Notes: generated by a model from the sequence alone, not told the origin. Positions 8,714 through 60,536 are shown, counted from the stretch's first letter. The stretch is DNA of 64,000 nt from Angustibacter sp. (GCA_051657715.1 JBOFLF010000015.1:13962-77961), one strand, 5' to 3'. A program made the numbers and translations.

Positions 8714-9292
8714 TCACCGGTCGATGTCACCTCGAGCTGTCGCCTGCACCGTCACCGTGATACCGCCGGCGAAATCGTCGACCACCCACGCAGCGATCGG
8801 CAGCTGCACTCGGCCGCTGAGTTGTACGGTCGCGCTTCGCCCGTCGTCAGTCCCGGTCCTAGGCCCTAGACGGATGGCGTCGACCCGGCGCGGAGGCGGG
8901 ACCCGCGCGAGGTACCGGGCAGCTTCGGCCCGGACTCCGGCATCGGTGACGGGCACGGTTGCCCTCAGAGGTGACGTGTACAGCCCTGGCCCGGCGAGCG
9001 TATCGGCGGCATCAAGAGCGGCGCCGTCCGCGATGTCGAGCAGCTGGGTACGAGCCAGGTGGACCGCGGTCGCGTTGACGACGACGGCGATCAGCCCGAA
9101 GCACACCACGACATACCCGATCACCAAGATGCTGATCTGCCCGTCGTCGCCAACGGTGGCCCGACGAACGGACCAGCCGCGCATTCGGCGGACCGCCACG
9201 GCTCGCGAAGCGGCCGCGATCGCGCTGGCCATCTCGAGCGGTGCGGCCACCCACCGCGGCAGGCTGACTGCCGGCCCGATCGATGACGTCAT
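8714..9292 (-). CDS. TadG-like (Flp pilus-assembly TadE/G-like) membrane-anchored protein
   Basis: 192 aa from the ATG at 9292, which overlaps the stop of the upstream gene (9289-9292). N-terminal motif GDDGQISILVIGYVVVCFGLIAVVVNATAVHLARTQL resembles the TadG N-terminal anchor. Last gene of the tad operon. Confidence 0.6.
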   Translation of the reverse strand: MTSSIGPAVSLPRWVAAPLEMASAIAAASRAVAVRRMRGWSVRRATVGDDGQISILVIGYVVVCFGLIAVVVNATAVHLARTQLLDIADGAALDAADTLAGPGLYTSPLRATVPVTDAGVRAEAARYLARVPPPRRVDAIRLGPRTGTDDGRSATVQLSGRVQLPIAAWVVDDFAGGITVTVQATARGDIDR

Positions 9293-9774
9293 CGTCGTGC
9301 CCGAAAGCGATCCACCGTGGCGATGTGGGTGGCCTGCATCTCGATCTGTGCCGGCACGACCGAGCTGAATCCACGAGGCATACCAGGCAGGTCGACATCG
9401 ACGACCACCCGGACCGGGATCCGCGACTGAGGGCGCAGGCAGTCGGGGGTCGCGCATGAGATCTCCAGCTCGGTGATGGCGTCGGCGGCAAAGCCTTGAT
9501 CGGCCACCGCGACAACGGCCGCGGCGACAGCGCGGCGGCGACCGGCGTCCGGACTTGGTGCGGTCACGAACACCCGACCAGCCTCCCTGGCCGCGGCCTG
9601 GGCCGCATACGCGCCAGCTTGAATGCGTCCAAGCGCGAACACCAGGTACACCAGTGGGACCAGGGCCACGACTGCCAGCAGACTGAACTCGACCAAGGCG
9701 CTGCCCGTCTCGTCCTTCTCCTGGCCGGTGCGCGCTCGAGCGGCCATCACGATGCGCCGACGAACCGCCCTCAT
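9289..9774 (-). CDS. TadE-like pseudopilin / pilus assembly protein
   Basis: 161 aa with TadE-type N-terminus (DETGSALVEFSLLAVVALVPLVYLVFALG). Operon context. Confidence 0.65.
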   Translation of the reverse strand: MRAVRRRIVMAARARTGQEKDETGSALVEFSLLAVVALVPLVYLVFALGRIQAGAYAAQAAAREAGRVFVTAPSPDAGRRRAVAAAVVAVADQGFAADAITELEISCATPDCLRPQSRIPVRVVVDVDLPGMPRGFSSVVPAQIEMQATHIATVDRFRARR

Positions 9775-9790
9775 GCCGCACCGGACTCCA

Positions 9791-10258
9791 TCACTGCCGC
9801 TCCAGGTAGGCGTGACCGTCCACAGTCAGCGAGTCGGTCGGCCCGGCAAAGCCCACCAACGGCAACGGTGCCACCACCCGGATCCTCAGCACCCGAACAC
9901 CCGACTGGTCCACCTCAGATGCCGCGATCGTGTCAGCGAGGCGGGCGGCATACCTGGGGGACAGCTCGCTGGCTACCAGGTCTCGAGTCCGCTGTACCGC
10001 GTCGCCTGGCGAACGATCGGCTCGGGCACCGTAGCGAGCGCCTTCGGCGGCACAGTCGGTGAGCGTCGACCGCACGTGCAGCACCAGGCTGAGCTGAAGG
10101 ATCGACAGGAACATGGCGGTGAGCAGGCCAGCGACCAGAGCGAAATCGACGACCGCCGATCCACCTTGGCTGCCATCGCTCAGCGGTCGCGCCGCTTGCG
10201 CATCAAGGCCCGCTGACACCGGTGACCGCGTCTCGGAAGAGGTCATTGAGCAGGTCAC
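9791..10258 (-). CDS. TadE-like pseudopilin / pilus assembly protein
   Basis: 155 aa with TadE-type N-terminus (GGSAVVDFALVAGLLTAMFLSILQLSLVLH). The start may be a few codons downstream, because the longest ORF overlaps the preceding gene. Confidence 0.65.
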   Translation of the reverse strand: MTCSMTSSETRSPVSAGLDAQAARPLSDGSQGGSAVVDFALVAGLLTAMFLSILQLSLVLHVRSTLTDCAAEGARYGARADRSPGDAVQRTRDLVASELSPRYAARLADTIAASEVDQSGVRVLRIRVVAPLPLVGFAGPTDSLTVDGHAYLERQ

Positions 10259-10451
10259 CTGCTACCGCCCACAGCCCCGCGACGAGCCCGGCTGTCATGA
10301 GAGTGACCAGAACCCAGCCGGGGACGTCACCGCCATCAGGCGAACCGCTGGCCGTCCGGCGGGCGACTGAGCGAATTCTGCCCACCGCTGACCAAGACCT
10401 CGCATTCAACCTTGGGCTCAAACCGGTCCACGATCGCATCGGACCGCTCAT
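10203..10451 (-). CDS. small Flp/DUF4244-like candidate pilin
   Basis: Single hydrophobic helix near the C-terminus (GDVPGWVLVTLMTAGLVAGLWAVAGDLLNDLF), in the pilin position between tadC and the tadE-like genes. An internal ATG at 10451 follows AGGAGGA. The longest ORF starts at 10508 with an ATGA overlap on the tadC stop. True start unresolved. Confidence 0.4.
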   Translation of the reverse strand: MSGPMRSWTGLSPRLNARSWSAVGRIRSVARRTASGSPDGGDVPGWVLVTLMTAGLVAGLWAVAGDLLNDLFRDAVTGVSGP

Positions 10452-10504
10452 CGTCGTCCTCCTCTGGTGACTACCTACGTCTGGGCTGGGGATTGAGCGT
10501 GAAT

Positions 10505-11440
10505 TCATAGATCCAGGCGCAGGAAGCTGAACCCTGGGAACACCGCAAAGAGCACCGTGATGGGCAAGACCAGAAAGACAACCGGGACCATCATCGCGAC
10601 TTCGCGCGTCCCAGCCGCATCCATCAACGCTCGCCGCCCCGCTTCGCGTGCGTCCGCGGCCTGCCCACGGAGGACGTCGGCCAATGGCGTACCTCGTTCG
10701 ATCGCCACCACCACGCCATCGACGAACCTGGCTAGCGGGGTTAAGCCGGTCCGGTCAGACAGGCGTTGCAAGGCTTTCGTCACCGGCGTTCCGGATCGGG
10801 CATCGGCTAGGACCCGCTGCAGCTCCATGGACAGCGGACCGTCGCTCACCATCACCACCCGCTCGAGGGCGGCTATCGGCCCCTCCCCCGCCCCGACAGA
10901 CAACGCCACCATCTCGGCGACCGTCGGGAACTCAGCCATCATTGTGCGCTCGCGAACGACGACCTGCCGACCCAACCACCAGTCCCGAGCCGCCGCACCG
11001 AAGCCTCCACCGACCAGGACCAGCAATGCCAGCGGGACAACCGGTGCGGATCGCCACCACCACAACCACGCCGCCAGAGCGCCACCGACCACCACGCCGC
11101 CGACCGCTGCCACCACCTGCTGGGCACGGAACGCGTCTACGTCGTCCGGCAATCCGGCTCGCACCAACCGCTGGCGCACCGATTCCGCTCCGCCGAGGAG
11201 CCGCTCAGCGCGCCGCCCGAGACCGCGCGCCCACGGCGAGACCAGACGAATCAAAACCGAGGCTGAGCTCGTGACCGGATCGGTGCGCACCAACCGGCTC
11301 GGGGTCGGACCCTGGCGGAGATAGGGCGCGAGCCGTTGATCCAACGTGGGACGTCGGGTCAGTGGCAGCCATGTGATGACCAGCAGGACACCCAGAGCGC
11401 CGACCAGCCCGAGTGCCGCTCCAAGCCACGATGCGGTCAT
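10505..11440 (-). CDS. tadC: type II secretion system F-family inner-membrane protein (TadC-like)
   Basis: About 311 aa from the ATG at 11440 (MTASWLGAALGLVGALGVLLV). Polytopic membrane protein with a cytoplasmic T2SSF-like domain. Adjacent to a tadB-like paralogue. Confidence 0.8.
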   Translation of the reverse strand: MTASWLGAALGLVGALGVLLVITWLPLTRRPTLDQRLAPYLRQGPTPSRLVRTDPVTSSASVLIRLVSPWARGLGRRAERLLGGAESVRQRLVRAGLPDDVDAFRAQQVVAAVGGVVVGGALAAWLWWWRSAPVVPLALLVLVGGGFGAAARDWWLGRQVVVRERTMMAEFPTVAEMVALSVGAGEGPIAALERVVMVSDGPLSMELQRVLADARSGTPVTKALQRLSDRTGLTPLARFVDGVVVAIERGTPLADVLRGQAADAREAGRRALMDAAGTREVAMMVPVVFLVLPITVLFAVFPGFSFLRLDL

Positions 11441-11447
11441 GACGCCC

Positions 11448-12338
11448 TCATGAGGTACCAAGGTGATTGGTCGTGAGCACTCGCCGTTCTTCCGGGAGCG
11501 CAGCAATCCGAAGCATCGCCGCATAGGCCACGACGCTGAGCACCCCACCACTCAGCAAGACCAGCGCCCCGGCGGTCGTGCGGTATGCGGCAACCGATTC
11601 CGGGCGGGTGGCCAACAACCCGAGCACGATCCACGGCGCCGCGACCGCCAGCCGTGCACCAGTGACCGTCCACCCCTGCCTGGTGCGCAGTTCCGCCCTG
11701 GTGCGGATGTCCTGACGCAGGAAGGCAGACAACATCCTCAAGAGCCGGCCCACGTCGGTCCCCCCCACCTCACGGGCTAGGCGCAAGGCCTCGATGACGC
11801 GATCGGCCACCGGATCGGCCAGTCGCTCCTTGAGTTGGTCCAACGCTGGAGAGAAACGACCAGAGCCGCGGTAATCCCGAGCGAACTCGGCGAACGCCGG
11901 CCGCAGATCCTCAGGGCCTCGAATCGCGAGCTGTCCGACGGCTTCGGGCAGCTCAAGGCCGGCGCGGACAGCACTGGCCAGGTTGTCTATCGCATCTGGC
12001 CAGACGTCTCGAACAGCGGATCGGCGCCGGCGGGCTCGGGACCGAACCAGCAGCAGCGGTCCAGTCGATGCCATGAGTCCGAAGCAGACCGCGATGGGCA
12101 GCGCCCGGGCCAGACCGTACGCGGCTAACCCGATCACAAGTGCAACGACCACACTGGCTGACGCCAACGCACCCGGGCCGACATCGGGCAACCCGGCATG
12201 TCGCAAGTCGTCGGCCATCTGGTCTCGCACCGACGGCCGTCGGCCAGGCCGAGTCCGCGACGGCTCGGGGATCCAGCACGCCCACCACGTGCAGAACAAA
12301 CCCGTCCCGAGCACCAGGCCCAGCGCAAGACTCGTCAC
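11448..12338 (-). CDS. tadB: type II secretion system F-family inner-membrane protein (TadB-like)
   Basis: 296 aa. Its GTG start overlaps the cpaF stop (GTGA at 12335-12338). Membrane topology is like TadB. Confidence 0.8.
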   Translation of the reverse strand: MTSLALGLVLGTGLFCTWWACWIPEPSRTRPGRRPSVRDQMADDLRHAGLPDVGPGALASASVVVALVIGLAAYGLARALPIAVCFGLMASTGPLLLVRSRARRRRSAVRDVWPDAIDNLASAVRAGLELPEAVGQLAIRGPEDLRPAFAEFARDYRGSGRFSPALDQLKERLADPVADRVIEALRLAREVGGTDVGRLLRMLSAFLRQDIRTRAELRTRQGWTVTGARLAVAAPWIVLGLLATRPESVAAYRTTAGALVLLSGGVLSVVAYAAMLRIAALPEERRVLTTNHLGTS

Positions 12339-13696
12339 GCGAGTTCCCCGGTAGCGGCTGCCCAGCCCGACGGATGTGGTCTGTCTGACGGATGTGGCCT
12401 GTCTGACGAGTCACCGGCCAACAAGGCGACCGGATCGATGCCGATCCGCTCGAACCGTTCCGGGTGTGGCGCGAATCCCTCCGCCCGCACCAGCGTGCCC
12501 TCCCGAGCGACGAAGACATCCGCGGTCTCCAGCACGGTGCCCTCGACCCGCCCGGACACGGCGACGATCTCGCGCACCCGACGAGCCCCTGCGACGTCCT
12601 GGGCGAGGTACACCACCAGATCGATGCTGGCAGCGACGGTCGGCACGACAAAATGGGAGCCGACGTTCTCACCGGCTAGCAACGGCAACGTACACATTTT
12701 CACCAGCGCCTCTCGGGCGCTGTTGGCATGGACGGTGCACATGCCGGGAAGGCCGCTGTTCAACGCCAGCAACATGTCGAGGCTCTCCTCTTGACGCACC
12801 TCGCCGACCACGATCCGGGTCGGGCGCATCCGTAGCGCCTCCTTCACCAGCCGTCGAAGGGAGATCTCGCCCGTCCCCTCGAGATTCGGCTGCCGGCACT
12901 GCAGAGCGACGACGTCCCGAGCACGGATACGGAGCTCGAACACCTCCTCACAGGTGATGATCCGCTCACGAGGACCGATCGAACCAGCGAGGCAGTTCAG
13001 CATGGTGGTCTTGCCGGCCTGAGTACCGCCGGCGACCAGCACGTTGAGCCCGGCACGGACAGCGGCGTCCAGGAAGGCGGCGGCATGGCGGGTCAGCGTT
13101 CCGAGACGTACCAGGTCATCCAGATGTCGGGCACGGACCACGAACTTGCGGACGTTGACGGCCCAGTGCTCCCGGGTCACATCCGGGATGACGACATGCA
13201 GCCGGGATCCGTCAGGCAACGTAGCGTCCACGAACGGAGACGACACGTCGACCCGACGCCCCGAGGACCGCAACATGCGCTCGACGAGTTCCCGGACCTG
13301 CGTCGCCGTCAGGATCGTCGTGGTCAGCTCGGGCTCTCCGGAGCGAGCCACGAACACCTTGCCGGGCTCATTGATCCACACCTCCTCGACTGTCGGATCG
13401 TCCAGGAAGGGCTGGAGCGGGCCGAAGCCGGCGACCGAGTCCCAGACCCGTTGCACCGCAACGGCAGCGTCACCCAGCGCAGGGACGCCATCGGATAGCG
13501 ATCTCTCGTCGTAGTCCGCGACGACCTGCTGGACCAGCGACCGAGCGGTCGCCGGCTCGCGCAGCGGATCGAGACCCGAACCGCGGATCAGCTCCCGGAC
13601 CTCGTACTCCACCTGTGCCACGGCATCTGGTACCGATTCGACCACGCTACCCGTCGTTCCGGTTGATCCCGCACCACTGGCCACTCCGGTCTCTGC
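12335..13696 (-). CDS. cpaF: CpaF/TadA-family pilus assembly (secretion) ATPase
   Basis: Walker A GGTQAGKTT, Asp/His boxes (..RIITCEEVFEL.., ..RIVVGEVRQEE.., GLPGMCTVHANS). Start set at the GTG at 13696 (VAETGV...). The ORF is open to 13864, but those extra codons look non-coding. Confidence 0.9.
   Translation of the reverse strand, partial: AETGVASGAGSTGTTGSVVESVPDAVAQVEYEVRELIRGSGLDPLREPATARSLVQQVVADYDERSLSDGVPALGDAAVAVQRVWDSVAGFGPLQPFLDDPTVEEVWINEPGKVFVARSGEPELTTTILTATQVRELVERMLRSSGRRVDVSSPFVDATLPDGSRLHVVIPDVTREHWAVNVRKFVVRARHLDDLVRLGTLTRHAAAFLDAAVRAGLNVLVAGGTQAGKTTMLNCLAGSIGPRERIITCEEVFELRIRARDVVALQCRQPNLEGTGEISLRRLVKEALRMRPTRIVVGEVRQEESLDMLLALNSGLPGMCTVHANSAREALVKMCTLPLLAGENVGSHFVVPTVAASIDLVVYLAQDVAGARRVREIVAVSGRVEGTVLETADVFVAREGTLVRAEGFAPHPERFERIGIDPVALLAGDSSDRPHPSDRPHPSGWAAATGELA
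12372..12407. repeat. 18-bp x2 in-frame tandem duplication in the cpaF 3' end
   Basis: GGATGTGGTCTGTCTGAC is followed by GGATGTGGCCTGTCTGAC. It encodes ..SDRPHP SDRPHP.. in the C-terminal tail. Confidence 0.9.
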
Positions 13697-13856
13697 CACC
13701 CCTGCACCCCTGCCCTCGGTTGCCCGCCTCGAGTCTGCTGATGTCGCGCACTGACATCGAGCACGAGCAACCCTAGACAACGCCCGGTGGTGGACCAACC
13801 CGTCATCCACAACCCGGACGGCAGATCCTCCCACCACACACCACCGGACCTTCGGT

Positions 13857-13872
13857 GTTGACATGGGTCAAC
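13857..13872. promoter_or_regulatory. perfect 6-4-6 palindrome (candidate operator) in the cpaF / FHA-FtsK divergent region
   Basis: GTTGAC-ATGG-GTCAAC read directly. The left half contains TTGACA. It lies between the two divergent start codons. Confidence 0.35.
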
Positions 13873-13937
13873 CTAGCCACCAGCAACCCTGTGGATGCAC
13901 ACCCACGGTCCGGCCCGCTCTGGGGCAGCCTGGTGGG

Positions 13938-16900
13938 GTGAAACTGCGCTGCACCGTAGAGGGCGATGGTCCGACGTTCGTCGACCTCGTCATCGAAGCC
14001 GCGCCGGGTGCACGGTGGGGACAGGTCGCCCAGCAGGTCGTGGTCGCCTCAGGTCACCCGCTGGGCACGGTCTTCACCGCCGGGATCTCTGCTGACCGCG
14101 GGTATCTGGGCTCAGCGTGCCTGCCGGGCGCCGTGCCACTGCCGGATGCCGTACCGCTCGGACATCCCCCACTGGTGCACGGCGCGCTACTGCGAGCGAA
14201 CACCCTTGGCACGTCCCCGATGGCCGCACCGTCAGCGGCACCCGAGGGCCAGCTCGAGCTGCACGTGGTCGCTGGGCCGGACTGTGGACACGTACGGGCG
14301 CTGGAGCCCCGCGGGTACACAGTAGGACGAGGCGATGGCGCCGACATCCGCCTGGAGGATCCGTCGCTGTCCCGGCGGCACCTGCACCTCGAGGTCCGAC
14401 CGGATGGCGTGCGGGTCCAGGATCTCGGGTCCACCAACGGCACGCGGATGGGCTCCCGAGTGATCCGTCCCGGCTTGATCCCATGGCCGCTCGACGAGCG
14501 CATCGTCTGCGGGAACAGCGTGCTCGAGCTGCGTCGCTGCATCACGACCCCACTCTCGGTCCGGTGCCCCGGGGATGGCACGGTCCGCATCAGCCGGGCA
14601 GCAGTCGAGGCAAGGGATCCAGCAGACATCGAACTGCAGGCACCGACGCCGCCGACGCCGCATCCAGCGTCGAGGCCGGCGTGGGTGACCTGGTCGGCTG
14701 TCCTGCTGATGCCGCTCATCACGCTCGCCGGGGTGCTCACCCTGCATCGATCGCCCTACCTGATCCTCGCGCTGCTGACCTCCCTGCTGACGTTCGGCGG
14801 TGTTCTCGGCGAGCGCCAGCGGGATCGACGGCGGTGGGCCGAGGACCGCGCGCGCCATCAGCACGAGCAGGAGCGGCACCGCCGGCAACTCACCGCAGCC
14901 TTGACGGCCGAGGTGTCCGCCCGGCGCGCGGTCGCCGGTGATCCCGCCGCCAGCTGGTCGGCCCTGGCACGGCGGTCAGCAGGCCTGTGGCGCCGCACAG
15001 CTGACGACCCGAACCTGCTCTCGGTGCGGCTCGGCACTGGACCGGTCACGTCCCAGGTGCGCGAACGGACAGAGGACGGCATCCGGCGACCGGTGCTGCA
15101 GAACGCGCCGATCGTGCTCCGGCTAGACGAGGTTGGGCACCTGGGCATCACCGGGCCGACGGAACTGGTCCGAGCGATGGCTCGACAGCTGCTCGTCGAC
15201 CTGTGCATCGCAACCGGCCCTAGCGCTTTAGCAGTCATCACACCGGACACGCACCCGGCCTGGGCGTGGAGCCGATGGCTTCCCCACAAGATCGTGCGGG
15301 AGACAGCACCTCCAGCGGCGGAGCACCAGCGGCGGACGGTGGTGGTCCTGGACGTGCTGGACAAGCCTGCGAGCGCAGTCATCGTCCCGTCCAGCGGCCA
15401 GACCCTGGACGACACGCTCCTGCACGGCACGAAAACCCGTGGCCTCGCCCCTCACGAACTCGACATCGACGGCCTGGACACCGACAGCCTGAACATCGAG
15501 GCCCTGGCGCAGCGCGCCATACACCTGCTGGTGCTCTCACCTGCGCCTGCTGACCTTCCCGCGCAGTGCCGAGCCGTGGTGGACATCGCGGCACATGCAG
15601 GTGCGCTAGCCCGGTTGCCCGATCACCACCGGCTGTCGCTCCGGCCGGACGGCGTCGGGCTTCATTGGGCTCATGGCGCCGCTCGGATGCTAGCGCCGCT
15701 GCGCGAAGATGGCTCTCATGCGGGCTCTGAGGCTATCCCGGCTCAGGTCGCGTTGGCCGACCTGCTGGGACTCCCCGACAGCATCAGCGAATCCGAGGCC
15801 GTTCGGCTGGTAGCCAGCCGGTGGTGCTCCAACGGACGCAGCACGGTGATGATGCTCGGAGCGAACGGCACTGGACCGGTCTCAGTGGACCTGATGTCCG
15901 ACGGGCCACATGCATTGGTCGCTGGTACGACCGGCGCCGGCAAGTCTGAGCTGCTGCGCACCATGGTGCTGTCGTTGGCCGTCGCCAACCGGCCGGACGA
16001 GCTGGGCTTCGTGCTCATCGATTACAAGGGTGGCACCGCATTCGCCAACTGCGAACGGGTGCCACACGTCACCGGAGTGATCAGCGACCTGGACGAACAG
16101 CTGGCCGCACGCGCCCTCCGGTCGTTGCGGGCAGAGCTGTCCCGTCGTGAGCGGCTGCTCGCGGCAGGTCGGGCCGAAGACCTCGGCGCCTACCAACGGT
16201 GGGCAGACGCAGATCCTCGCCGCCCTCGGTTGGGACGACTGGTGGTCGTGATCGACGAGTTCCGCGCTCTCGCTACCGAGCTTCCTGACTTCATGGAAGG
16301 TGTCGTCCGGCTCGCTGCTGTCGGGCGGGCGCTCGGGATCCATCTGGTGCTGGCCACTCAACGCCCGGCCGGTGTCGTGTCGGCGGATATCCGGGCCAAC
16401 GTCAACCTGCGGATCGCCCTGCGGGTCCGCGATCGAGCCGAGTCCGATGATGTGCTCGACGCACCAGACGCCGCCGAACTACCGGTACGGCACCCGGGCC
16501 GAGCGCTTATCCGAAGCGGCGGCGATCCGTTGAGGATGCTGCAGGTGGCGCGCGCCGATGCTCGGAGCGCGCCAGCGCCACCGCCGTGTCCCACGGTTCG
16601 TCCCCTCGTCGAGGAGACAGACGCCCCCGCGACGACTTCAGCATCGACCGGAGCCCTCGACCGACTGGTGTCAACGGTCCGAGCGGCAACCGCAACACTG
16701 GCACTGCCGGCACCGGCGCGCCCGTGGCTGCCACCCCTACCCCACGTCCTGCCGGATGCAGCCCTCCGTCGGCGTCCCCGCCAACTGCCTGGTCAAGAGC
16801 TTGGTGAGCACCAGGGCGATGAGAGGCCGCACGCGGTGAAGCTGGGGCTGTTAGACGACCCGGACCAGGCACAGCAGACGCCCTATACCTGGCTACCCGA

Positions 16901-18386
16901 GCACGACGGTCATCTGGCCATCATCGGGGGTCCGCGCAGCGGACGCAGCACCGCACTCCATCGAGTCGTTACCGAGCTGGCCGCTCAGCGTGATCCGAGC
17001 ACGATGCACCTGCACCTCATCGACTTCAGCGGTGGCCGCCTACCCGAGTGGGTTCAGTTGCCACATGTCGGCACAACCGTCGGACGGGACTGCCCCAGGT
17101 TGGCCGCGCGGCTCATCACCCGGCTAGTCGAACAGCGCAGACATGCAAAGCCCGACACCTCGGAGGCATCAGCAGCTGATCGGCCACGCCCGACTACCGT
17201 GCTCCTGATCGACGGCTGGGAGGCGCTGACCGAAGCTCTGGACGGTATCGACCGAGGACGACCGCTCGATGAACTGGTCGGACTTCTCCGGGACGCCGGA
17301 CCCGCCGGGCCTTGGGGAGTGCTCTGCGGGGGACCGCGAGTGGTGTCTGGCCGGGTAGCCCAGGTAGTCCAGCAACGGGTGGTCCTGCGCTGCACCGACC
17401 CGACCGACCTGCTCCTCGCCGGACTCCCGCCAGGCGTTCGCCCGCCCTCTCAGCAACCACCTGGGCGGGCGCTGGTCTCGCCCCTTGGGCAGGAGGTCCA
17501 GCTGGCGTTGCCTCGACCACCAACACCTGTCGCCTCCCCGACGACCACTGCCAATCCAGGAGGCCCCGGTCCGGTGGCTACCCCTCCGGTTCGAGCACCA
17601 CTGCTCCTGCGAGCTCTTCCCACCGTAGTGACAGCGGGCGACCTACCCAAGGCCGAAGGGCTAGAGGCATTCCTCGGCATCGGAGGAGACGACGCCCGGC
17701 CACTGTCGATCGACCTGCAGACCCACACAGTGTTCGCCGTGCTGGGACCCCCTGGCAGCGGTCGATCCAGTACCTTGCAGCACCTGATGAGCGTGTTCCA
17801 TCAGCAGGGCATCCGCGGGTGCCTGATCAGCCTAGATCCGGCCAGGCCCGGCGAGCAGCAGTGGCCGGCTGAACACCCATCACAGCTCGGGAGCCTCAGG
17901 GCCGACATCGACGTCCTCGTGGTGGATGACGTCGATGCCCTGCTGAGCACCCCGGCGCACGATGCGCTCGTGGCCATGCTGACCCCAGAAGTCCCGGCAA
18001 CGTCGAGGCCTGCCGCAGGCGCCCCCGCGCTCGTGGTGTCAGGGACACCGGCCCGCCTGAGTGGCAGCTACTGCGGGCTAGCTCAGCTGGTGAGAGAGCG
18101 GCGGACCGGGGTGGTGCTGGGCGCCACCAGCGCGGCCGATGGCGACGCCCTGGCGACCCAGGCCCTGGTACCAGACCACCACTGCCCAGGACGCGGCACC
18201 CTGGCGATCCGGGGCCGTACCACCCCTATCCAAGTAGCCCACTACACCTCGAGCGGCCACGACGTTCCCGCTGACGGAATCATGAGTAGCTCACCCGGCC
18301 AGGGCAACCACCGCTTGCACCGACAACACCACCCCGAAGACGAAGAACGATCCAGCGGCGCTCCAGCGGACTGCTCGTTCGGGTAG
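13938..18386 (+). CDS. FHA-domain, membrane-anchored triple FtsK/SpoIIIE P-loop ATPase (EssC/EccC-like architecture)
   Basis: FHA core YTVGRGDGADIRLEDPSLSRRHLHLEV..GSTNGTRMG. Two TM helices (WVTWSAVLLMPLITLAGVLTL / LILALLTSLLTFGGVL). P-loop 1 is GTTGAGKSE with VVVIDEF, P-loop 2 is GGPRSGRST with VLLIDGWE, P-loop 3 is GPPGSGRSS with VLVVDDVD. Start taken as the GTG at 13938; the ORF is open from 13863. Confidence 0.85.
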   Translation: MKLRCTVEGDGPTFVDLVIEAAPGARWGQVAQQVVVASGHPLGTVFTAGISADRGYLGSACLPGAVPLPDAVPLGHPPLVHGALLRANTLGTSPMAAPSAAPEGQLELHVVAGPDCGHVRALEPRGYTVGRGDGADIRLEDPSLSRRHLHLEVRPDGVRVQDLGSTNGTRMGSRVIRPGLIPWPLDERIVCGNSVLELRRCITTPLSVRCPGDGTVRISRAAVEARDPADIELQAPTPPTPHPASRPAWVTWSAVLLMPLITLAGVLTLHRSPYLILALLTSLLTFGGVLGERQRDRRRWAEDRARHQHEQERHRRQLTAALTAEVSARRAVAGDPAASWSALARRSAGLWRRTADDPNLLSVRLGTGPVTSQVRERTEDGIRRPVLQNAPIVLRLDEVGHLGITGPTELVRAMARQLLVDLCIATGPSALAVITPDTHPAWAWSRWLPHKIVRETAPPAAEHQRRTVVVLDVLDKPASAVIVPSSGQTLDDTLLHGTKTRGLAPHELDIDGLDTDSLNIEALAQRAIHLLVLSPAPADLPAQCRAVVDIAAHAGALARLPDHHRLSLRPDGVGLHWAHGAARMLAPLREDGSHAGSEAIPAQVALADLLGLPDSISESEAVRLVASRWCSNGRSTVMMLGANGTGPVSVDLMSDGPHALVAGTTGAGKSELLRTMVLSLAVANRPDELGFVLIDYKGGTAFANCERVPHVTGVISDLDEQLAARALRSLRAELSRRERLLAAGRAEDLGAYQRWADADPRRPRLGRLVVVIDEFRALATELPDFMEGVVRLAAVGRALGIHLVLATQRPAGVVSADIRANVNLRIALRVRDRAESDDVLDAPDAAELPVRHPGRALIRSGGDPLRMLQVARADARSAPAPPPCPTVRPLVEETDAPATTSASTGALDRLVSTVRAATATLALPAPARPWLPPLPHVLPDAALRRRPRQLPGQELGEHQGDERPHAVKLGLLDDPDQAQQTPYTWLPEHDGHLAIIGGPRSGRSTALHRVVTELAAQRDPSTMHLHLIDFSGGRLPEWVQLPHVGTTVGRDCPRLAARLITRLVEQRRHAKPDTSEASAADRPRPTTVLLIDGWEALTEALDGIDRGRPLDELVGLLRDAGPAGPWGVLCGGPRVVSGRVAQVVQQRVVLRCTDPTDLLLAGLPPGVRPPSQQPPGRALVSPLGQEVQLALPRPPTPVASPTTTANPGGPGPVATPPVRAPLLLRALPTVVTAGDLPKAEGLEAFLGIGGDDARPLSIDLQTHTVFAVLGPPGSGRSSTLQHLMSVFHQQGIRGCLISLDPARPGEQQWPAEHPSQLGSLRADIDVLVVDDVDALLSTPAHDALVAMLTPEVPATSRPAAGAPALVVSGTPARLSGSYCGLAQLVRERRTGVVLGATSAADGDALATQALVPDHHCPGRGTLAIRGRTTPIQVAHYTSSGHDVPADGIMSSSPGQGNHRLHRQHHPEDEERSSGAPADCSFG

Positions 18387-18881
18387 TCGCTTCCCAAGCG
18401 TCCGACCGAGGGCGATGGCGAGCGCGTCAGCGACGACCATGCCGAGGGTGGACCCGATCCACGTACCCCACGGGTCGTAATCCGTGGCCAAAGTCATGGT
18501 GGCGAGCATCGTCTTGTCTCCCAATTCGGCGAGGAAGAACGCGATCCCGACAGTGATGACCACTGACCGCGTGGTCTGGCCTGCTCGCGCCTGCTCGTCC
18601 TCGGTCAGTCGGTCGCCACGGATCGTCCACGCGGCGAAGCCGAAAAAAGCAAGGGCCGCCCCCAGCGTCAGCCAGTCAGTGGGAAGGGCGGCGCCCAGCC
18701 CATACCCCAGCACGACCGAGGCCAGGTGCACCACCGCGGTCGCAGCGGTGATAGCAAGCAGCACCGGCATGGCACGAAACCGAGCAGCGAACGCCAATGC
18801 CATGAGTTGGGATTTGTCACCGAACTCGGCTAGGAAGACGACCGCGAACGACACCATGGCGCCGGTGAGGAAGGCGAACAT
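18291..18881 (-). CDS. GDT1/TMEM165 (UPF0016) family cation transporter
   Basis: Two copies of the E-x-G-D-K-(T/S) motif (LAEFGDKSQL and LAELGDKTML) in a six-TM protein. ATG at 18881 (MFAFLTGAMV). Confidence 0.8.
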   Translation of the reverse strand: MFAFLTGAMVSFAVVFLAEFGDKSQLMALAFAARFRAMPVLLAITAATAVVHLASVVLGYGLGAALPTDWLTLGAALAFFGFAAWTIRGDRLTEDEQARAGQTTRSVVITVGIAFFLAELGDKTMLATMTLATDYDPWGTWIGSTLGMVVADALAIALGRTLGKRLPERAVRWSAAGSFFVFGVVLSVQAVVALAG

Positions 18882-19006
18882 CTCAGATTCTTCCCACCTC
18901 AACCCAGGTCGTCGCCAGTGCACGCACGGGAGCCGGAACGCCTGGACACCTCACATCACCGGACACCCGAGGGTTTCCGGAAACCGATCGCACCGATATC
19001 GGCGCC

Positions 19007-28396: not shown

Positions 28397-28771
28397 TCAG
28401 CGAGGTCGGCGGATCTGCCGCACCCGTGCGGACCGGCCCCACGCCGTGTCAGCCGTCCAGACCACGGCGTCTAGGCGATCGGCGGTGGCCAGGCACAGCC
28501 GGTCTGCCAGCGAGAGCGCGCCATCGCAGACCCACTGCTCGGCAGCGTCCTCGGCGTCCTCGAGCAGCACCGGCTCAACCTGGAGCCCGTAGCTCAGCAA
28601 CAGGGCGCGCGACAGGGACCAATCACCCCCGTGCTGGCGCACCTTCTGCGCCACCTCGGCCCAGTTCGCCGCGCTACATCGGCCACCGGTTTCGAGCTCC
28701 CGCATGACGACCTGAGAGCCCTTCTCCCGCTTCAGGAAGCACAGCAGCGCGGATGAGTCGAACAGGTTCAC
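28397..28771 (-). CDS. vapC: PIN-domain toxin (VapC-like)
   Basis: 124 aa. N-terminal acidic PIN motif MNLFDSSALL and further conserved acidic residues (..LSLADRLCLATA..). Lies 16 nt downstream of a small AbrB-type gene. Confidence 0.8.
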   Translation of the reverse strand: MNLFDSSALLCFLKREKGSQVVMRELETGGRCSAANWAEVAQKVRQHGGDWSLSRALLLSYGLQVEPVLLEDAEDAAEQWVCDGALSLADRLCLATADRLDAVVWTADTAWGRSARVRQIRRPR

Positions 28772-28786
28772 CTCGACTGCCTCGGC

Positions 28787-33253: not shown

Positions 33254-33301
33254 CGACCGCACCCGCCGAGCACGGCCCACCCTTGGGGGTACATTGGGGT
33301 C

Positions 33302-33523
33302 ATGCCCAAGGTCAGCGTCTACCTCCCCGACGATCTCTACGCCGCCGTTCGGGACCGGGGTATCCCGCTGTCCGCGTTGACCCAGAAGGCTGTGCAGGCA
33401 ACGTTGCGAGCCGCGGACAACGAGGCGTGGATCGCTCGGATGCGGGCTCGGACCCGGCCTCGGGTGGCGGCGTTCGACACCACCGAGCTGATGGATGAAG
33501 TCCGCGACGAGTTCGACTCGTGA
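33302..33523 (+). CDS. ribbon-helix-helix-type antitoxin
   Basis: 73 aa. MPKVSVYLPDDLYAAVRDRGIPLSALTQKAV is an RHH/CopG-like N-terminus. Its stop overlaps the start of the PIN gene (ATGA-type overlap at 33520-33523). Confidence 0.7.
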   Translation: MPKVSVYLPDDLYAAVRDRGIPLSALTQKAVQATLRAADNEAWIARMRARTRPRVAAFDTTELMDEVRDEFDS

Positions 33524-33918
33524 TCGTTCTTGACGCGTCAGCCGTCGTCGACGTCGTGTTGGACCAACCGCACGGCAGCTGGGTGCTCGATCAGCTCGCG
33601 GCGGATACCGATGTCGTCGCCCCTGCTCACCAGACAGCTGAAGTCCTGTCCGCGATCGCTCGGGTGGTTCGCACCGACAGGATGACCGCACGGGCCGGGG
33701 CCGCGGCGCTCGCTGACGCTGGCGCGCTCGCGCAGCACCTCGTCCAGCCCTCCCGCGCCCACGTTCGTCGGGCATTCGAATTACGCGGGCGGATCCGGGT
33801 CGTGGACGGCCTCTACGTGGCACTCGCCGAGGAGCTGGCATGTCCGTTGATCACCACCGACCGACGTCTTGAGCGCAGTTCCCCCCCGTGCGCCGTCAGG
33901 TCTCCGGTCGATGCCTGA
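33520..33918 (+). CDS. vapC: PIN-domain toxin (VapC-like)
   Basis: 132 aa. MIVLDASAVVDVV... and the C-terminal ..LITTDRRL motif typical of VapC. Confidence 0.8.
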   Translation: MIVLDASAVVDVVLDQPHGSWVLDQLAADTDVVAPAHQTAEVLSAIARVVRTDRMTARAGAAALADAGALAQHLVQPSRAHVRRAFELRGRIRVVDGLYVALAEELACPLITTDRRLERSSPPCAVRSPVDA

Positions 33919-34009: not shown

Positions 34010-35440
34010 GTGAGCGGCACGTCGACCAAGGTGTTCATCGCCAGGCTGTCCGGCCTGGCGGTGTTCGACCCGTTGGGCGATCAGGTGGGCCGGGTCCGCG
34101 ATGTGGTGGTGGTGTTCCGCGCCGGCCGCCTCGCCCCGCTGGTGGTGGGACTGGTCGTGGAGGTTCCTGGTCGACGCCGGGTGTTCCTGCCGATGACCCG
34201 GGTGACCAGCCTCGACGCGGGGCAGGTGATCAGCACGGGGGTGGTGAACCTGCGCCGGTTCGAGCAGCGCCCGTCGGAGACGCTGGTGCTCGCTGAGGTC
34301 CTGGATCGCCGGGTGTCGATGCGGGACGGCACCGGCGACGTCGTGGTGGAGGACGTCGCGATGACCCAGCAGCGGGGGCGCGACTGGGTGGTCGGCAAGC
34401 TCTACGTCCGCCGAGCGCAGCCGACGGAAGGCCGGGGGCGGGTGCACCGGCTGCGACCCCGCTTGGGCACCCGGATCCGCGGCCGTGGCGAAGCGCTGCT
34501 GGTGGACCACGACGCGGTGACCGGCCTGTCGGTGGACACCGGCCGGCAGGGCGCCGCCCGGTTGCTGGCCACGTTCACGTCGTTGAAGGCCGCCGACATC
34601 GCCGACATCCTGCACGACCTGCCCCCGAAACGCCGGGTGGAGGTCGCCACCGGGCTGGACGACGAGAAGCTCGCCGACGTCCTGGAAGAGCTGCCGGAGG
34701 ACGACCAGGTGCAGATCCTCACCCAGCTGGCCACGGACCGCGCGGCGGACGTCCTGGAGGCGATGCAGCCGGACGACGCCACCGACCTGCTCGCCGAGCT
34801 GCCCGCGGACAAGGCCGAGCAGCTGCTGCAGCTGATGGAGCCCGAGGAGGCCGCGCCCCTGCGCCGGCTGCTCAGCTACGACGACGACACCGCGGGCGGG
34901 CTGATGACCTCCAACCCGGTGATCCTGGGTCCCGAGGCCACGGTCGCCCAGGCGCTCGCGGACGTACGCCGGGCCGAGCTGAGCCCGGCGCTGGCGGCCA
35001 GCGTGTTCGTCTGCCGGCCGCCGCTGGAGACACCGACCGGCCGGTACCTGGGCCTGGTGCACATCCAGCGCCTGCTGCGCGAACCGCCGCACGCCGCGGT
35101 GGGCGGCTTCGTCGACACCGACATCGAACCGCTGCCGCCGGACGCCGACGTGGACCAGGTCACCCGGCTGCTGGCCACCTACAACCTGGTCGGCGCGCCG
35201 GTCGTCGACCAGGACGGCCACCTGCTCGGCGCGGTCACCGTGGACGACCTGCTCGACCACCTGTTGCCGGACGACTGGCGGGCCGGCGACGACGACGCCC
35301 TCGGGCTGGTCCCGCCCACCCGCCGAAGCCCGGCTCTGCCCATCCGCGAGAACCCGGCCTCCGCTGCCGAGTCCGGACCAGCTGCGGCCCGCTCGGACGC
35401 AGCCGCTACCAGGACTCGAGGGGGTCGTCGTGGCACGTGA
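34010..35440 (+). CDS. PRC-barrel / MgtE N-terminal domain / CBS-pair protein (no transporter domain)
   Basis: 476 aa. The MgtE_N-like acidic helical region (ADILHDLPPKRRVEVATGLDDEKLADVLEELPEDDQVQIL) is followed by a CBS pair (..LMTSNPVILGPEATVAQAL.., ..VVDQDGHLLGAVTVDDLLD). I recall Rv1232c-type proteins sharing this layout. Confidence 0.8.
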   Translation: MSGTSTKVFIARLSGLAVFDPLGDQVGRVRDVVVVFRAGRLAPLVVGLVVEVPGRRRVFLPMTRVTSLDAGQVISTGVVNLRRFEQRPSETLVLAEVLDRRVSMRDGTGDVVVEDVAMTQQRGRDWVVGKLYVRRAQPTEGRGRVHRLRPRLGTRIRGRGEALLVDHDAVTGLSVDTGRQGAARLLATFTSLKAADIADILHDLPPKRRVEVATGLDDEKLADVLEELPEDDQVQILTQLATDRAADVLEAMQPDDATDLLAELPADKAEQLLQLMEPEEAAPLRRLLSYDDDTAGGLMTSNPVILGPEATVAQALADVRRAELSPALAASVFVCRPPLETPTGRYLGLVHIQRLLREPPHAAVGGFVDTDIEPLPPDADVDQVTRLLATYNLVGAPVVDQDGHLLGAVTVDDLLDHLLPDDWRAGDDDALGLVPPTRRSPALPIRENPASAAESGPAAARSDAAATRTRGGRRGT

Positions 35441-36223: not shown

Positions 36224-38263
36224 TTGGCGGATCTTCCCGCGACTCAGGGCGCCGATAAACGGTGCATGTCGGGATCTCACCAGACCATCGCTAGCCAGCA
36301 CGTGCCCCGGCACGCGGTCACCCTCGATGCCCGACCGATCCCCGGCGGTGATCCCAGTCGGCGACGTCGATTGGGTGAGGTGTTGATCGACGAGCAGTTG
36401 CTCACCGACGAGCAGCTAGTGCACGCGCTCGCCGTCCAACGCTCAGCGCAGGGCAGCCGCAAGCGCCTCGGCCAGGTGGTCGCCGAGCTGGGCTATGCGT
36501 CCGAGAGCGAGATCGCCGAGGCTCTGGCTGCGCACCTGCAGCTGGAGTCGGTGGACCTGTCCTGGGTGATCCCGGCGGCGGACGTGGTGCGGCTGCTACC
36601 CCGCGCGGTGGCCGACCGGACCGGGGTGCTCCCGCTGGACCGGCACCCCGACGGCGGGCTGATCGTCGCCGCGTCCGACCCGACGAACGTGCTCGCGCTG
36701 GACGACGTGCGGATGTACACCAAGGCCAGCGAGCTCTACATCGTTGTCGCGCCGGAATCCCAGATCCGCGACCACCTGACCCGGGCATGGGCGTTGAACG
36801 CCGACGACTCCGAGGTCTCGCAGATCGCCGCGGACGTACCTGCCGAGGACGACGACCTCAGCGCCCAGGCGGATGCGGCCCTGTCCGCCACCACCACGGA
36901 CGACGCGCCGGTCGTGAAGCTGGTCAGCCAGGTGCTCATGGACGCCGCCCGCCTCGGCGCGTCCGACATCCACCTGGAGACCCAGCGGGACGGGCTGCGG
37001 ATCCGGTACCGGGTGGACGGGATGCTCCGGGACGTGATGACCGCGCCCAAGCGGATCAGCCCCTCCGTGGTGAGCCGGGTGAAGATCATGTCCGGCCTGG
37101 ACATCGCCGAGCGCCGGGTCCCGCAGGACGGCCGCAGCCGGATCATGGTGGACGGCACGGCGGTCGATGCCCGGGTCAGCACGCTGCCGGCGTTGCACGG
37201 GGAGAAGGTCGTCGTCCGGTTGCTAACCCGGTCCGCGCAGGTGCCGTCGCTGGACTCGCTCGGTTTCGAGCCGGCACAGCTGGAGCTGTTCCGCTCCGCG
37301 CTCGCGGTGCCGCAAGGGCTGGTGCTGATCACCGGGCCGACCGGCTCGGGTAAGACCAACACCCTGTACGCCGCGATCAGCGAGACGATGACGCCGGAGA
37401 AGAACATCGTCACCCTGGAGGATCCGGTCGAGGTGCAGCTGCCCGGCATCACCCAGGTCCAGGTGCACGTGAAGTCCGGGTTGACCTTCGACGCCGGGCT
37501 GCGCTCGATCCTGCGGCAGGACCCGGACATCGTGCTGCTCGGCGAGGTCCGGGACAGCGAGACCGCGGAGCTGGCCCTCAAGGCGTCGCTGACCGGCCAC
37601 CTGGTGCTCACCACGCTGCACACCAACTCCGCGGTGGCGGCGTTGACCCGCCTGGTGGACATGGGGGTCGAGCCGTTCCTGGTCGCCTCGTCGCTGACTG
37701 CGGCGATCGCCCAGCGGCTGGTCCGCAAACCCTGCGACGCCTGCGCCGTCGGGTACATCCCGGACGAGGACACCCTGGCGTTGCTGGGCCTGCGGATCGA
37801 GGACATCCTCGACGCGACCCCGCTCAGGGGCACCGGGTGCCCGGACTGCGGTGGCACCGGCTACCGCGGTCGCACCGCCGTCTACGAGATGCTCACCGTG
37901 GACACCGCGATGCGACAGGTGCTGATGGCCGGGGCCAGCGAGTCCGCGGTCGGTGCCCAGGCCCGCGCCGCCGGCATGCTCACTCTGCGCGGTGCCGCGC
38001 TGGAGAAGGCGAAGCGCGGCGAGACGACCTTCGAGGAAGCGGTCCGGGTCACCCACACCGACCACGCCTCCGGCCGGCACTGCCCGTCCTGTGAGCGCGG
38101 GATCCAGCACGACATGGTCGCGTGCCCGTGGTGCGGGGTGAGCGTGGACCACGGCTCCTGCTCGACCTGCTCCCGCCAGCTGGACCCGGACTGGCGGCTG
38201 TGCCCGTGGTGTCGGACCCCGGCCAGCTCGAGCAGCGCTCCCCTCACGCACGCCGTGCCCTGA
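36224..38263 (+). CDS. GspE/PilB-family secretion ATPase with MshEN-like N-domain and extra C-terminal double zinc ribbon
   Basis: Walker A GPTGSGKTN, Asp box NIVTLEDPVE, Walker B DIVLLGEVRD, His box LVLTTLHTNS, tetracysteine CDAC...CPDCGGTGY. N-terminal tandem RLGxxL...Q motifs. C-terminal CPSC..CPWC and CSTC..CPWC. Start may be the ATG at 36266. Confidence 0.9.
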   Translation: MADLPATQGADKRCMSGSHQTIASQHVPRHAVTLDARPIPGGDPSRRRRLGEVLIDEQLLTDEQLVHALAVQRSAQGSRKRLGQVVAELGYASESEIAEALAAHLQLESVDLSWVIPAADVVRLLPRAVADRTGVLPLDRHPDGGLIVAASDPTNVLALDDVRMYTKASELYIVVAPESQIRDHLTRAWALNADDSEVSQIAADVPAEDDDLSAQADAALSATTTDDAPVVKLVSQVLMDAARLGASDIHLETQRDGLRIRYRVDGMLRDVMTAPKRISPSVVSRVKIMSGLDIAERRVPQDGRSRIMVDGTAVDARVSTLPALHGEKVVVRLLTRSAQVPSLDSLGFEPAQLELFRSALAVPQGLVLITGPTGSGKTNTLYAAISETMTPEKNIVTLEDPVEVQLPGITQVQVHVKSGLTFDAGLRSILRQDPDIVLLGEVRDSETAELALKASLTGHLVLTTLHTNSAVAALTRLVDMGVEPFLVASSLTAAIAQRLVRKPCDACAVGYIPDEDTLALLGLRIEDILDATPLRGTGCPDCGGTGYRGRTAVYEMLTVDTAMRQVLMAGASESAVGAQARAAGMLTLRGAALEKAKRGETTFEEAVRVTHTDHASGRHCPSCERGIQHDMVACPWCGVSVDHGSCSTCSRQLDPDWRLCPWCRTPASSSSAPLTHAVP

Positions 38264-60071: not shown

Positions 60072-60207
60072 CTGATCATTGTCCCGTACTGCGCCCCCGA
60101 CAGCCTCTCGACCTGCGGGTGGTCTGGAGCTGGTCCTCGGGCAGACGGCGCTGCGCCTTCCGGAGCTCCCCGCCTTCCTCCCGACGACCTATGCTCGTGG
60201 GCGCAGC

Positions 60208-60390
60208 TGGTTCGGCCTGCCTGCCAGGCGGGTCGTCGCAAGAGGGAACCCGGTGTAAGTCCGGGACTGCCCCGCAGCGGTGAGTGGGAACGACAGCTGT
60301 CATGAGCACTGGGGCGACCTGGGAAGCGACGGCCAGTAGGTGCGAGCCGGTTCGGTTCGCGAGCCCATGAGTCCGAAGACCTGCCAGCGC
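60208..60390 (+). promoter_or_regulatory. cobalamin (B12) riboswitch, metE leader
   Basis: Conserved core AGAGGGAACCCGGTGTAAGTCCGGGACTGCCCCGCAGCGGTGAG and B12 box AGTCCGAAGACCTGCC (60370-60385). A TATGCT -10-like hexamer lies at 60190-60195. It sits about 150 nt upstream of metE. Confidence 0.85.
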
Positions 60391-60536
60391 ACCGCGGCCA
60401 CCCGGTCGCGGTGGTCCGTGACCTCGAGGGCGGGTCTGAGGCCGGTTCGACGCGTCGCCGGTGACGGCGCGCGCCCAGCCGTGCGTCACGTGCTCCCGTG
60501 GTCCGGACTCGGACCGAGCTCACGAGGAGCGAGCAC

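Follow-up and report, generated by a model that had tools for sequence, protein, structure and literature searches.

An EccC/EssC-type FHA ATPase paired with a tad-1-type pilus operon in Angustibacter, and its probable link to natural transformation

What brings a large membrane ATPase and a Tad-type pilus operon together, back to back, in the genome of Angustibacter sp., and do the two transcription units serve a common function? The locus in question occupies positions 8714-18386 of a 64,000-nucleotide (nt) stretch of DNA (the window; about 70% G+C), in which about 65 open reading frames (ORFs) were scanned and assigned to families with Pfam and NCBIfam models. The tad genes lie on the minus strand, and divergent from them, on the plus strand, lies a gene for an ATPase that carries an FHA domain, two transmembrane (TM) helices and three P-loop domains (D1 to D3). 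A preliminary description of this DNA had proposed a functional link between the two units, with several possible roles, and that link is supported by conserved adjacency, by a shared promoter-like motif, by published genetics in Micrococcus luteus and by a homologous M. luteus-type locus that we recovered. Because of these four observations, DNA uptake is the best of the roles that had been listed, and we consider it fairly probable that the locus encodes a tad-1-type (pseudo)pilus with a co-regulated membrane ATPase, most likely for DNA uptake of the natural-transformation type.

The arrangement is not without precedent: in M. luteus, a gene for a "FtsK/SpoIIIE family" protein with two TM helices, Mlut_07490, directly adjoins tad-1 (PMC8467076, Genes 2021). 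Both transformation and the presence of Flp on the surface depend on the tad-1 genes of M. luteus (Angelov et al. 2015, PMC4322843); all tad-1 genes tested were needed for transformation, the tadB defect being partial (PMC4322843). Likewise, when the single-nucleotide polymorphism for the G327E change was put back into Mlut_07490, transformation fell by a factor of at least 1000, and the comEA/EC promoter was still active (PMC8467076). We back-translated the peptide AAAAPAVAPWE, which is quoted for Mlut_07490, and scanned a metagenome collection with it, which returned six loci of 73-75% G+C. One of these, L085, contains a 999-amino-acid (aa) ORF with GTTGSGKS at residue 520, AAAAPAVAPWE at residue 741 and glycine at residue 327, the residue mutated in the published strain. 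Since this ORF agrees with the published details of Mlut_07490, we infer that L085 is a Micrococcus-type locus.

The window resembles M. luteus tad-1 (Mlut_07500-07560) in its gene order, which reads ATPase / tadA-tadB-tadC-small pilin-tadE-tadF-tadG and then prfB. Both also have a GDVPGW pilin and an intergenic TGTGGAC, and both lack tadZ and tadV at the locus. Proteins of the M. luteus-type loci L084 and L085 are 62% (CpaF), 54% (TadB), 43% (TadC) and 41% (D1 of the ATPase) identical to those of the window. Given this gene order and these identities, comparison of the sequences identifies the window locus as the orthologue of tad-1 plus Mlut_07490. The ATPases differ in length and domain content. 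The M. luteus-type protein has 999 aa, whereas that of the window has 1482; domain hidden Markov models (HMMs) find in the former an FHA domain, the TM region, D1 and one D2-like domain but no D3, and its FHA domain has lost the Ser, His and Asn residues that bind phosphothreonine, whereas the FHA domain of the window ATPase is canonical. Thus, the window ATPase is the full-length and apparently ancestral form.

The tad side of the locus consists of seven translationally coupled genes on the minus strand:

12335-13645, minus strand: cpaF/tadA, secretion ATPase of the tad-1 type (PF00437 T2SSE, 134.7 bits)
11448-12338, minus strand: tadB, platform protein (PF00482 T2SSF), with a GTG start and a 4-nt overlap with the cpaF stop
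10505-11440, minus strand: tadC, platform protein (PF00482 T2SSF, 63.4 bits)
10203-10508, minus strand: candidate small Flp-like prepilin, given as the maximal ORF; conserved, without a family model
9791-10258, minus strand: tadE-like pseudopilin 1, with GG/SAVVDF (PF07811 TadE, 45.6 bits); start uncertain
9289-9774, minus strand: tadE/F-like pseudopilin 2, with G/SALVEF (PF07811, 21.6 bits, slightly below the cut-off)
8714-9292, minus strand: tadG-like protein (PF13400 Tad, 30.6 bits), with an ATG start and a 4-nt overlap with the tadE2 stop

These gene calls, and that of the divergent ATPase, match the ORFs first described, and Pfam and NCBIfam agree with them; the stop/start overlaps that had been reported at 12335-12338, 10505-10508 and 9289-9292 are 4 nt each and follow from the ORF coordinates. 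One PF00437 and two PF00482 matches establish that the Tad core of TadA/CpaF, TadB and TadC is present, and the operon also contains TadE/TadF pseudopilins and a TadG-like protein. CpaF is 73-81% identical to database orthologues, and TadB identity across related loci is 54-63%. The G/XXXXE[FS] motif of pseudopilin 2 (9289-9774) agrees with the motif reported for M. luteus tad-1. The start of tadC is probably the ATG at 11440, the maximal ORF extending to 11551. For cpaF, the maximal ORF spans 12335-13864 on the minus strand, and the N-termini of nine orthologues make a GTG at about 13645 a likelier start than 13696, the start remaining uncertain. With a start at about 13645, the intergenic region is about 290 bp long. 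The preliminary description had cpaF begin at 13696 and the two units share a promoter region of about 240 bp; a promoter-like motif stands ahead of both genes, and the size and the cpaF start are to be revised. A T-rich tract in the CpaF N-terminal extension was considered as a target of the FHA domain and rejected for lack of conservation and because the true start is probably downstream of it.

The small pilin (10203-10508) has a basic leader and the conserved core RGDVPGWVLVTLMTAGLVA, and its near-invariant pattern is RGDVPGWVLVTLMTAGLVA...LF..A..V.G. No Pfam or NCBIfam model, and no Flp model, matches it. It is nevertheless kept in all full-length tad-1-type operons examined, the M. luteus type included, with orthologues of 63-80 aa that carry RG/DVPGWV followed by a hydrophobic helix. 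The canonical Flp pilin motif is G/XXXXEY, whereas that of the window pilin is G/DVPGW; by analogy, the pilin would be cleaved after the Gly of RG/DVPGW to give a mature peptide of about 42 aa.

The ATPase gene and its parts are as follows:

13938-18386, plus strand: EccC/EssC-type ATPase of 1482 aa with FHA domain, two TM helices, DUF region and three P-loop domains (D1-D3), from domain scans
14247-14537, plus strand: FHA domain, residues ~104-200 (PF00498, 44 bits; PF16697, 51.5 bits), with GR...SRRH...STNGT
14685-14810, plus strand: two TM helices, residues 250-268 and 273-291, from a hydropathy scan; aligned to the TM region of TIGR03924 EccCa
15798-16577, plus strand: D1 motor domain (PF01580), with intact Walker A GTTGAGKS (residue 663) and Walker B VVVIDEF
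16755-18257, plus strand: P-loop domains D2 and D3, with Walker A GGPRSGRS (residue 997) and GPPGSGRS (residue 1270)

The product of 13938-18386 matches P0001 (1482 aa, "FtsK/SpoIIIE domain-containing protein [Angustibacter sp.]", from a metagenome-assembled genome, MAG) with 100% identity, and for that reason the start was set at the GTG at 13938. The architecture predicted earlier, an EssC/EccC-like protein of about 1480 aa with FHA domain, two TM helices and three P-loops, is therefore confirmed. The canonical FHA residues GR...SR.H...[ST]NG are kept in all full-length relatives. Each of the three Walker A motifs has its Walker B, and D1 is the best-conserved region in the family alignment, with 54-66% identity versus 19-44% elsewhere. 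The Walker A motifs of D2 and D3 (16926-16949 and 17745-17768) have Arg in place of Lys throughout the family, whereas the EccC of Thermomonospora curvata (4NH0) has Lys in both; judged by these motifs, neither D2 nor D3 is likely to be catalytic. Some of the C-terminal tail, which is rich in His and Ser and poorly conserved, may have no function. At its 3' end (18291-18386), the ORF shares about 96 nt with a GDT1-family gene that runs towards it on the minus strand (18291-18923).

To which branch of the FtsK superfamily does this ATPase belong? Among NCBIfam models, EssC (TIGR03928) scores 384.8 bits against a cut-off of 778.4, EccCa (TIGR03924) 300.8 against 509.15 and EccCb (TIGR03925) 264.3 against 346.55; the EccCa alignment joins residues 288-894 to positions 31-665 of the 673 in the profile. 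The best solved relative is the T. curvata EccC (272 bits over residues 390-1069), followed by YukB/EssC and EccC5, and FtsK covers D1 only, with about 89 bits. No match to Ftsk_gamma (PF09397) was found in the ATPase by Pfam. Given this NCBIfam ranking, the solved relatives and the domain content, the ATPase is a divergent member of the EccC/EssC lineage (type VII secretion) within the FtsK superfamily and not an FtsK-type DNA pump; an FtsK-type translocase and a conjugative TraB were both rejected on scores and domain content. Like EccC of T7SSa and EssC/YukB of T7SSb (T7SS, type VII secretion system), it has two TM helices, a DUF region and three FtsK-like domains, and its N-terminal FHA domain keeps the phosphothreonine-binding residues as does that of T7SSd TsdC (Garrett et al. 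2024, PMC11217815). EssC has two FHA domains, whereas this protein has one. Unlike T7SS ATPases, it falls under all equivalog cut-offs and is paired with a Tad operon, and unlike T7SS loci, the window lacks WXG100, EccB/D/E/MycP, EssA/B/EsaA and TsdD/H/I genes.

The absence of a WXG100 partner is best understood from the relatives of the ATPase. A scan of a genome collection gave 80 related loci across Actinomycetota, in which neighbouring ORFs were clustered and cluster representatives annotated. These neighbourhoods are of three types. In the tad-1 type (a), a cpaF gene of at least 475 bits lies on the opposite strand, usually followed by tadB, tadC, pilin and tadE/F/G; it is immediately divergent in most loci and about 3 kb off in the Intrasporangiaceae MAG (L004). 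The other members are a Jiangellales MAG, Humibacillus, a Dermatophilaceae MAG, two Mycobacteriales MAGs, Kineosporia mesophila and Pedococcus. In most loci of type (b), which occurs in Streptosporangiales, Actinacidiphila and some Streptomyces (L007, L008, L015, L016, L019, L022, L027, L033, L035, L044, L048, L052, L059, L060, L067, L078), a full Tad set (SAF/RcpC-CpaB, MinD-like, a more distant CpaF, TadB, TadC, TadE and a BTAD membrane protein of about 900 aa) lies upstream of the ATPase gene, and in most a WXG100 gene lies just downstream of it. Type (b) is an actinobacterial T7SS-Tad composite outside the 2024 T7SS classification. Type (c) is without cpaF and has WXG100-like genes, T7SS_signal-domain proteins, Ser/Thr kinases or sigma factors.

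Of 79 related loci, 55 have WXG100-like ORFs, and in 50 such an ORF lies no more than 2.5 kb from the ATPase gene; one cluster of these neighbours, of 104 aa, has no Pfam match and is WXG100-like with a profile-profile probability of 97.4%. Most relatives thus have adjacent WXG100 genes as in T7SS, and some have Ser/Thr kinases. By contrast, only one of the 15 tad-1-type loci (L001) has a WXG100-like ORF. Two custom HMMs built from the WXG100-like neighbours detected no WXG100 gene in any of the six frames of the window (best E = 0.16), and Pfam found no EccB/D/E/MycP, EssA/EssB/EsaA or TsdD/H/I among the ORFs scanned. Since WXG100 genes accompany 55 of 79 relatives but one of 15 tad-1-type loci, the ATPase family is T7SS-like at its root, and the lineage of the window has lost its WXG100 partner. 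In the ordering obtained by the unweighted pair group method with arithmetic mean and in the neighbour-joining tree of the ATPases, the tad-1-type proteins appear as a basal grade; because the deep branches are short, we do not claim that they are monophyletic.

How tight is the pairing of the ATPase with tad genes? The preliminary description had made enriched adjacency in other genomes the check on its proposal, and the neighbourhoods of the homologues do show it: a CpaF homologue lies within 10 kb in 21 of the 63 related loci that have at least 5 kb of upstream flank, where a rough estimate of chance gives fewer than one, and five more loci have a cpaB-tadZ module instead of CpaF. A protein search brought up closer relatives, in Angustibacter sp. 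McL0619 and Flexivirga, and in these the pairing is the same. Altogether, the divergent pair is found in Angustibacter, Kineosporia, Humibacillus, Pedococcus and Flexivirga, and in Dermatophilaceae, Jiangellales and Mycobacteriales MAGs, and it survives where flanking genes differ. We also sampled seven loci from the CpaF side, independently of the ATPase, through CpaF orthologues that are 73-81% identical; in three (L091, L093, L095), a divergent ATPase gene lies 124-268 bp away. In Knoellia sp. S7-12, the ATPase gene lies 1.56 Mb off, beside whiB-pdtaS, and the break falls exactly between the two units. The adjacency is thus frequent, ancient and facultative. In L001 (909-2447, minus strand) and L041 (3000-8600), the operon ends after cpaF, which is followed by a serine-recombinase-like gene in L001 and by ORFs unrelated to tad in L041, and the ATPase gene and cpaF stay paired.

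Alignment of the intergenic regions revealed TGTGGAY (often CTGTGGACAAC) followed after 28-30 nt by a -10-like YANNNT. The window has one such element facing each unit:

13770-13811, minus strand: promoter-like element facing cpaF, TGTGGATGAC-N-TAGGGT
13890-13931, plus strand: promoter-like element facing the ATPase gene, TGTGGATGCA-N-CAGCCT

The same architecture occurs upstream of cpaF in at least nine related loci. The distance from the motif start to the ATPase start codon is 47-49 nt in the window (48), L081, L095 and L096; since the element of the window ends 6 nt before the GTG at 13938, a leaderless mRNA is predicted. Neither a sigma-70 consensus promoter nor an intrinsic terminator was found in the intergenic region, as expected for a high-G+C actinobacterium. 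Across 9.6 kb of cpaF/ATPase intergenic DNA, the composite motif TGTGGAY-N28-30-YANNNT has 15 matches; the rest of these loci (360 kb) yields six and the other loci (1.49 Mb) 17, so that the motif is about 100-fold enriched between the two genes. The window itself has four matches, two of which face outward in the intergenic region, versus 0.5 expected from shuffles. M. luteus-type loci show it twice, as a perfect inverted pair (CTGTGGACAAC-N26-GTTGTCCACAG), and further elements lie at L081:9952, L095:6780/6831, L084:3772-3817 and L013:7624/18831/19399. In Knoellia, the element is retained both at the relocated ATPase gene (L096:7953) and at the tad operon (L092:6875). Because these two units keep the motif 1.56 Mb apart, the motif is evidence for co-regulation that is independent of adjacency, and it suggests that both transcription units are co-regulated. 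A third Knoellia copy precedes an unannotated 109-aa ORF (L096:19535-19912, plus strand) beside the NAD-GDH gene, a possible further member of the regulon.

Copies of the element are further present in L013 and in loci of Geodermatophilaceae; in the former and most of the latter, the element stands beside an HTH_17 gene divergent from a SAF(CpaB)-MinD-like(TadZ) operon. This module lies 4-7 kb from the ATPase gene (L013:16806-19205, L036:16238-18815, L025, L065, L079, L080), and its arrangement is shared with M. luteus "cluster 13" (Mlut_14660/14650/14640), mutations in which change comEA/EC promoter activity and transformation; the paper on this cluster does not mention the motif. The HTH_17 (excisionase-family) protein is a candidate binder of TGTGGAY. 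A search of the window by tblastn with the L013 and L036 modules found no hidden TadZ/CpaB/HTH_17 module; its sole product was a weak P-loop match to the Mrp/ApbC gene of the window.

How does the locus compare to other Tad systems? With Aggregatibacter tad, Caulobacter cpa and Mycobacterium tuberculosis Rv3654c-Rv3660c, it shares CpaF/TadA, TadB, TadC, TadE/F and a TadG-like protein. Unlike canonical Tad/Flp loci, it has no TadZ/CpaE, TadV, CpaB or secretin. HMM and Pfam scans confirm the earlier observation that WXG100, Ecc/Ess, CpaE/TadZ and prepilin peptidase genes are all missing from the window (no TadZ/CpaE and no Peptidase_A24/TadV among the ORFs scanned). The lack of the usual Tad partners, initially seen as an oddity, is not one: tadV and tadZ are normally absent from actinobacterial tad loci (PMC4322843). 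CpaB/TadZ and a regulator form a separate operon in M. luteus and in some related loci. It had also been suggested that the translocase takes the place of the CpaE-like ATPase and helicase of the M. tuberculosis locus. CpaF, however, scores 259.1 bits against TIGR03819, under the cut-off of 373.15, the TadG-like protein scores 18.9 against TIGR03816, under the cut-off of 50.95, and no CpaE-like gene is present. A Tad locus of the M. tuberculosis helicase/secretion-neighbourhood type was rejected on these scores. Rv3654c-Rv3660c is a different Tad subtype, and therefore the ATPase does not "replace" anything there. The window also encodes a second secretion-type ATPase of 679 aa (36224-38263, plus strand; T2SSE, 427 bits; MshEN; C-terminal double zinc ribbon) between mgtE (34010-35440) and the Mrp/ApbC gene (38298-39431), with no adjoining pilus genes and no TGTGGAY element ahead of it. 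In Bacillota, T7SSg and T7SSh always lie beside Tad genes, a link whose meaning is unexplained (Garrett et al. 2024, PMC11217815). The Angustibacter locus resembles them in the genetic linkage of an EssC-family ATPase to a set of Tad genes; the Bacillota systems differ in keeping WXG100 and a ubiquitin-like protein, in having ATPases without FHA, and in belonging to another phylum.

If the locus serves DNA uptake, CpaF, TadB and TadC would build a short fibre whose subunits are the GDVPGW pilin and the TadE/F/G-like pseudopilins. Beside the Tad platform, the ATPase would form a hexameric ring anchored by 12 TM helices, and binding of its FHA domain to a phosphothreonine protein may switch it on; no Ser/Thr kinase gene was found among the window ORFs scanned. 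D1, as the only catalytically intact domain, would then drive a macromolecule across the cytoplasmic membrane in the course of DNA uptake. As in M. luteus, other parts of the genome would contain tadV, cpaB/tadZ, the gene for the HTH_17 regulator, a Flp-containing tad-2 and comEA/EC. As to what D1 moves, the ATPase may be an import motor for incoming DNA, ComFA-like and alongside ComEC, a credible proposal that falls short of an even chance. It might also export or assemble a protein needed for the pilus, which is plausible enough to be kept in view, or it could, less plausibly, have a mainly scaffolding or regulatory part. That WXG100 has been lost, that M. luteus dispenses with D3 and that D1 is selectively conserved all favour a role in which WXG100 is no longer recognised.

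Several points weigh against a joint role in DNA uptake. The EccC/EssC ancestry of the ATPase favours protein export over DNA translocation, and the promoter-like motif is a sequence pattern. A requirement for transformation is known from M. luteus only, and for Mlut_07490 the evidence is a single missense allele in one paper, without deletion or complementation (PMC8467076). Four of the seven CpaF-sampled loci (L089, L090, L092, L094) have no ATPase gene within 7 kb, and a block pdtaS-whiB-(GDT1)-ATPase / tad-prfB-ftsE-ftsX is syntenic in several genera, so that part of the conservation of the pairing may be inherited gene order. If inherited order were the whole explanation, the two units would be neighbours with unrelated functions. 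The recurrence of the block, the adjacency missing from four of seven loci with the Knoellia break exactly between the units, and the greater divergence of the ATPase (about 40% identity to its closest relatives versus 73-81% among CpaF orthologues) all fit that explanation. We nonetheless judge it quite improbable: both units have in front of them one and the same promoter-like motif, which is rare and persists after their separation, M. luteus-type and Flexivirga loci keep the pair despite a different flank on the ATPase side, mutations in either unit give the same phenotype in M. luteus, and Tad genes join this ATPase family independently in a second gene architecture.

The ATPase might instead still be a type VII-like secretion motor whose WXG100-type substrates and accessories are encoded elsewhere and which has no more in common with the Tad system than regulation or a niche in the envelope, a proposal already made for T7SSg/h beside Tad genes in Bacillota. 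EccC/EssC proteins are its closest relatives in sequence, WXG100-like genes accompany 55 of 79 related loci (50 within 2.5 kb), and the tad-1-type locus L001 keeps one beside the ATPase; the Streptosporangiales/Actinacidiphila clade joins a full Tad set to WXG100, T7SSg and T7SSh always adjoin Tad genes (Garrett et al. 2024, PMC11217815), and the window ATPase retains D2 and D3. In spite of this, no WXG100-like ORF is present in the 64-kb window or in 14 of the 15 tad-1-type loci, and no other Ecc/Ess component was found among the window ORFs scanned. D3 of EccC is the domain that binds the WXG100 signal, and the M. luteus orthologue has no D3 yet is needed for transformation. We therefore hold such a secretion motor to be unlikely, while taking it seriously. 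A TraB/FtsK-like pump for double-stranded DNA, acting in conjugation or chromosome segregation, is very improbable indeed. Membership of the FtsK/SpoIIIE superfamily (PF01580, 172.9 bits) and the label "DNA segregation ATPase" in source databases speak for it, but the NCBIfam scores are far under their cut-offs (FtsK, NF007615, 86.3 versus 1566; plasmid TraB, 23.5 versus 800), Ftsk_gamma is missing, there are two TM helices rather than four and three P-loop domains, and the flanks of the ATPase gene contain no integrase, relaxase or replication genes, the context being core chromosome.

The flanking genes on one side of the locus are prfB, ftsE, ftsX, an M23 peptidase gene, smpB and pyc, and on the other the GDT1-family gene, whiB, a pdtaS-like kinase gene and a large NAD-GDH gene. 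Third-position G+C is about 0.69-0.79 in the tad and ATPase genes versus 0.80-0.93 in neighbouring housekeeping genes, which could result from low expression or from an older horizontal acquisition. Elsewhere in the window, an Rfam scan found only two cobalamin riboswitches, 60191-60402 and 62996-63236 (both plus strand), distant from the locus and preceding metE (60498-62879) and a ribonucleotide reductase gene (from about 62854). There are also a PIN-domain gene (28397-28786, minus strand), a CcdA-like antitoxin and PIN toxin pair (33254-33918, plus strand) and a stand-alone N6/N4 DNA methylase gene (51558-52481, plus strand).

For M. luteus, the pairing and its link to transformation are already published. 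As far as our literature searches reach, the T7SS-type identity of the ATPase and its full-length FHA form appear to be unreported, as do the WXG100-less tad-1-type lineage, the GDVPGW pilin family and the shared TGTGGAY element; no publication on the motif or on a link between T7SS and Tad in actinobacteria came up. What is known of natural transformation in Actinomycetota amounts to an outline, drawn from M. luteus alone; there, the role of the "FtsK-like" gene by tad-1 rests on one point mutant, and the gene has been discussed as an FtsK/SpoIIIE relative. What the present analysis adds is that the full-length form is of EccC/EssC type with a functional-looking FHA domain, is widespread beside tad-1-type operons and shares a specific promoter element with them. 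The resulting model can be tested at the Walker motifs of D1, the ligand of the FHA domain, the regulon marked by TGTGGAY and the GDVPGW pilin. To the T7SS-Tad linkage of Bacillota, which is unexplained, the locus contributes a case from the actinobacteria. Tentatively, a T7SS-type ATPase may have been taken over in Actinomycetota as the motor of Tad-based DNA uptake, shedding WXG100, and in Micrococcus D3 as well, within a dedicated TGTGGAY regulon possibly controlled by the HTH_17 regulator of M. luteus "cluster 13". If this possibility were true, it would be the first T7SS-family ATPase in DNA import and would supply the missing motor of actinobacterial transformation.

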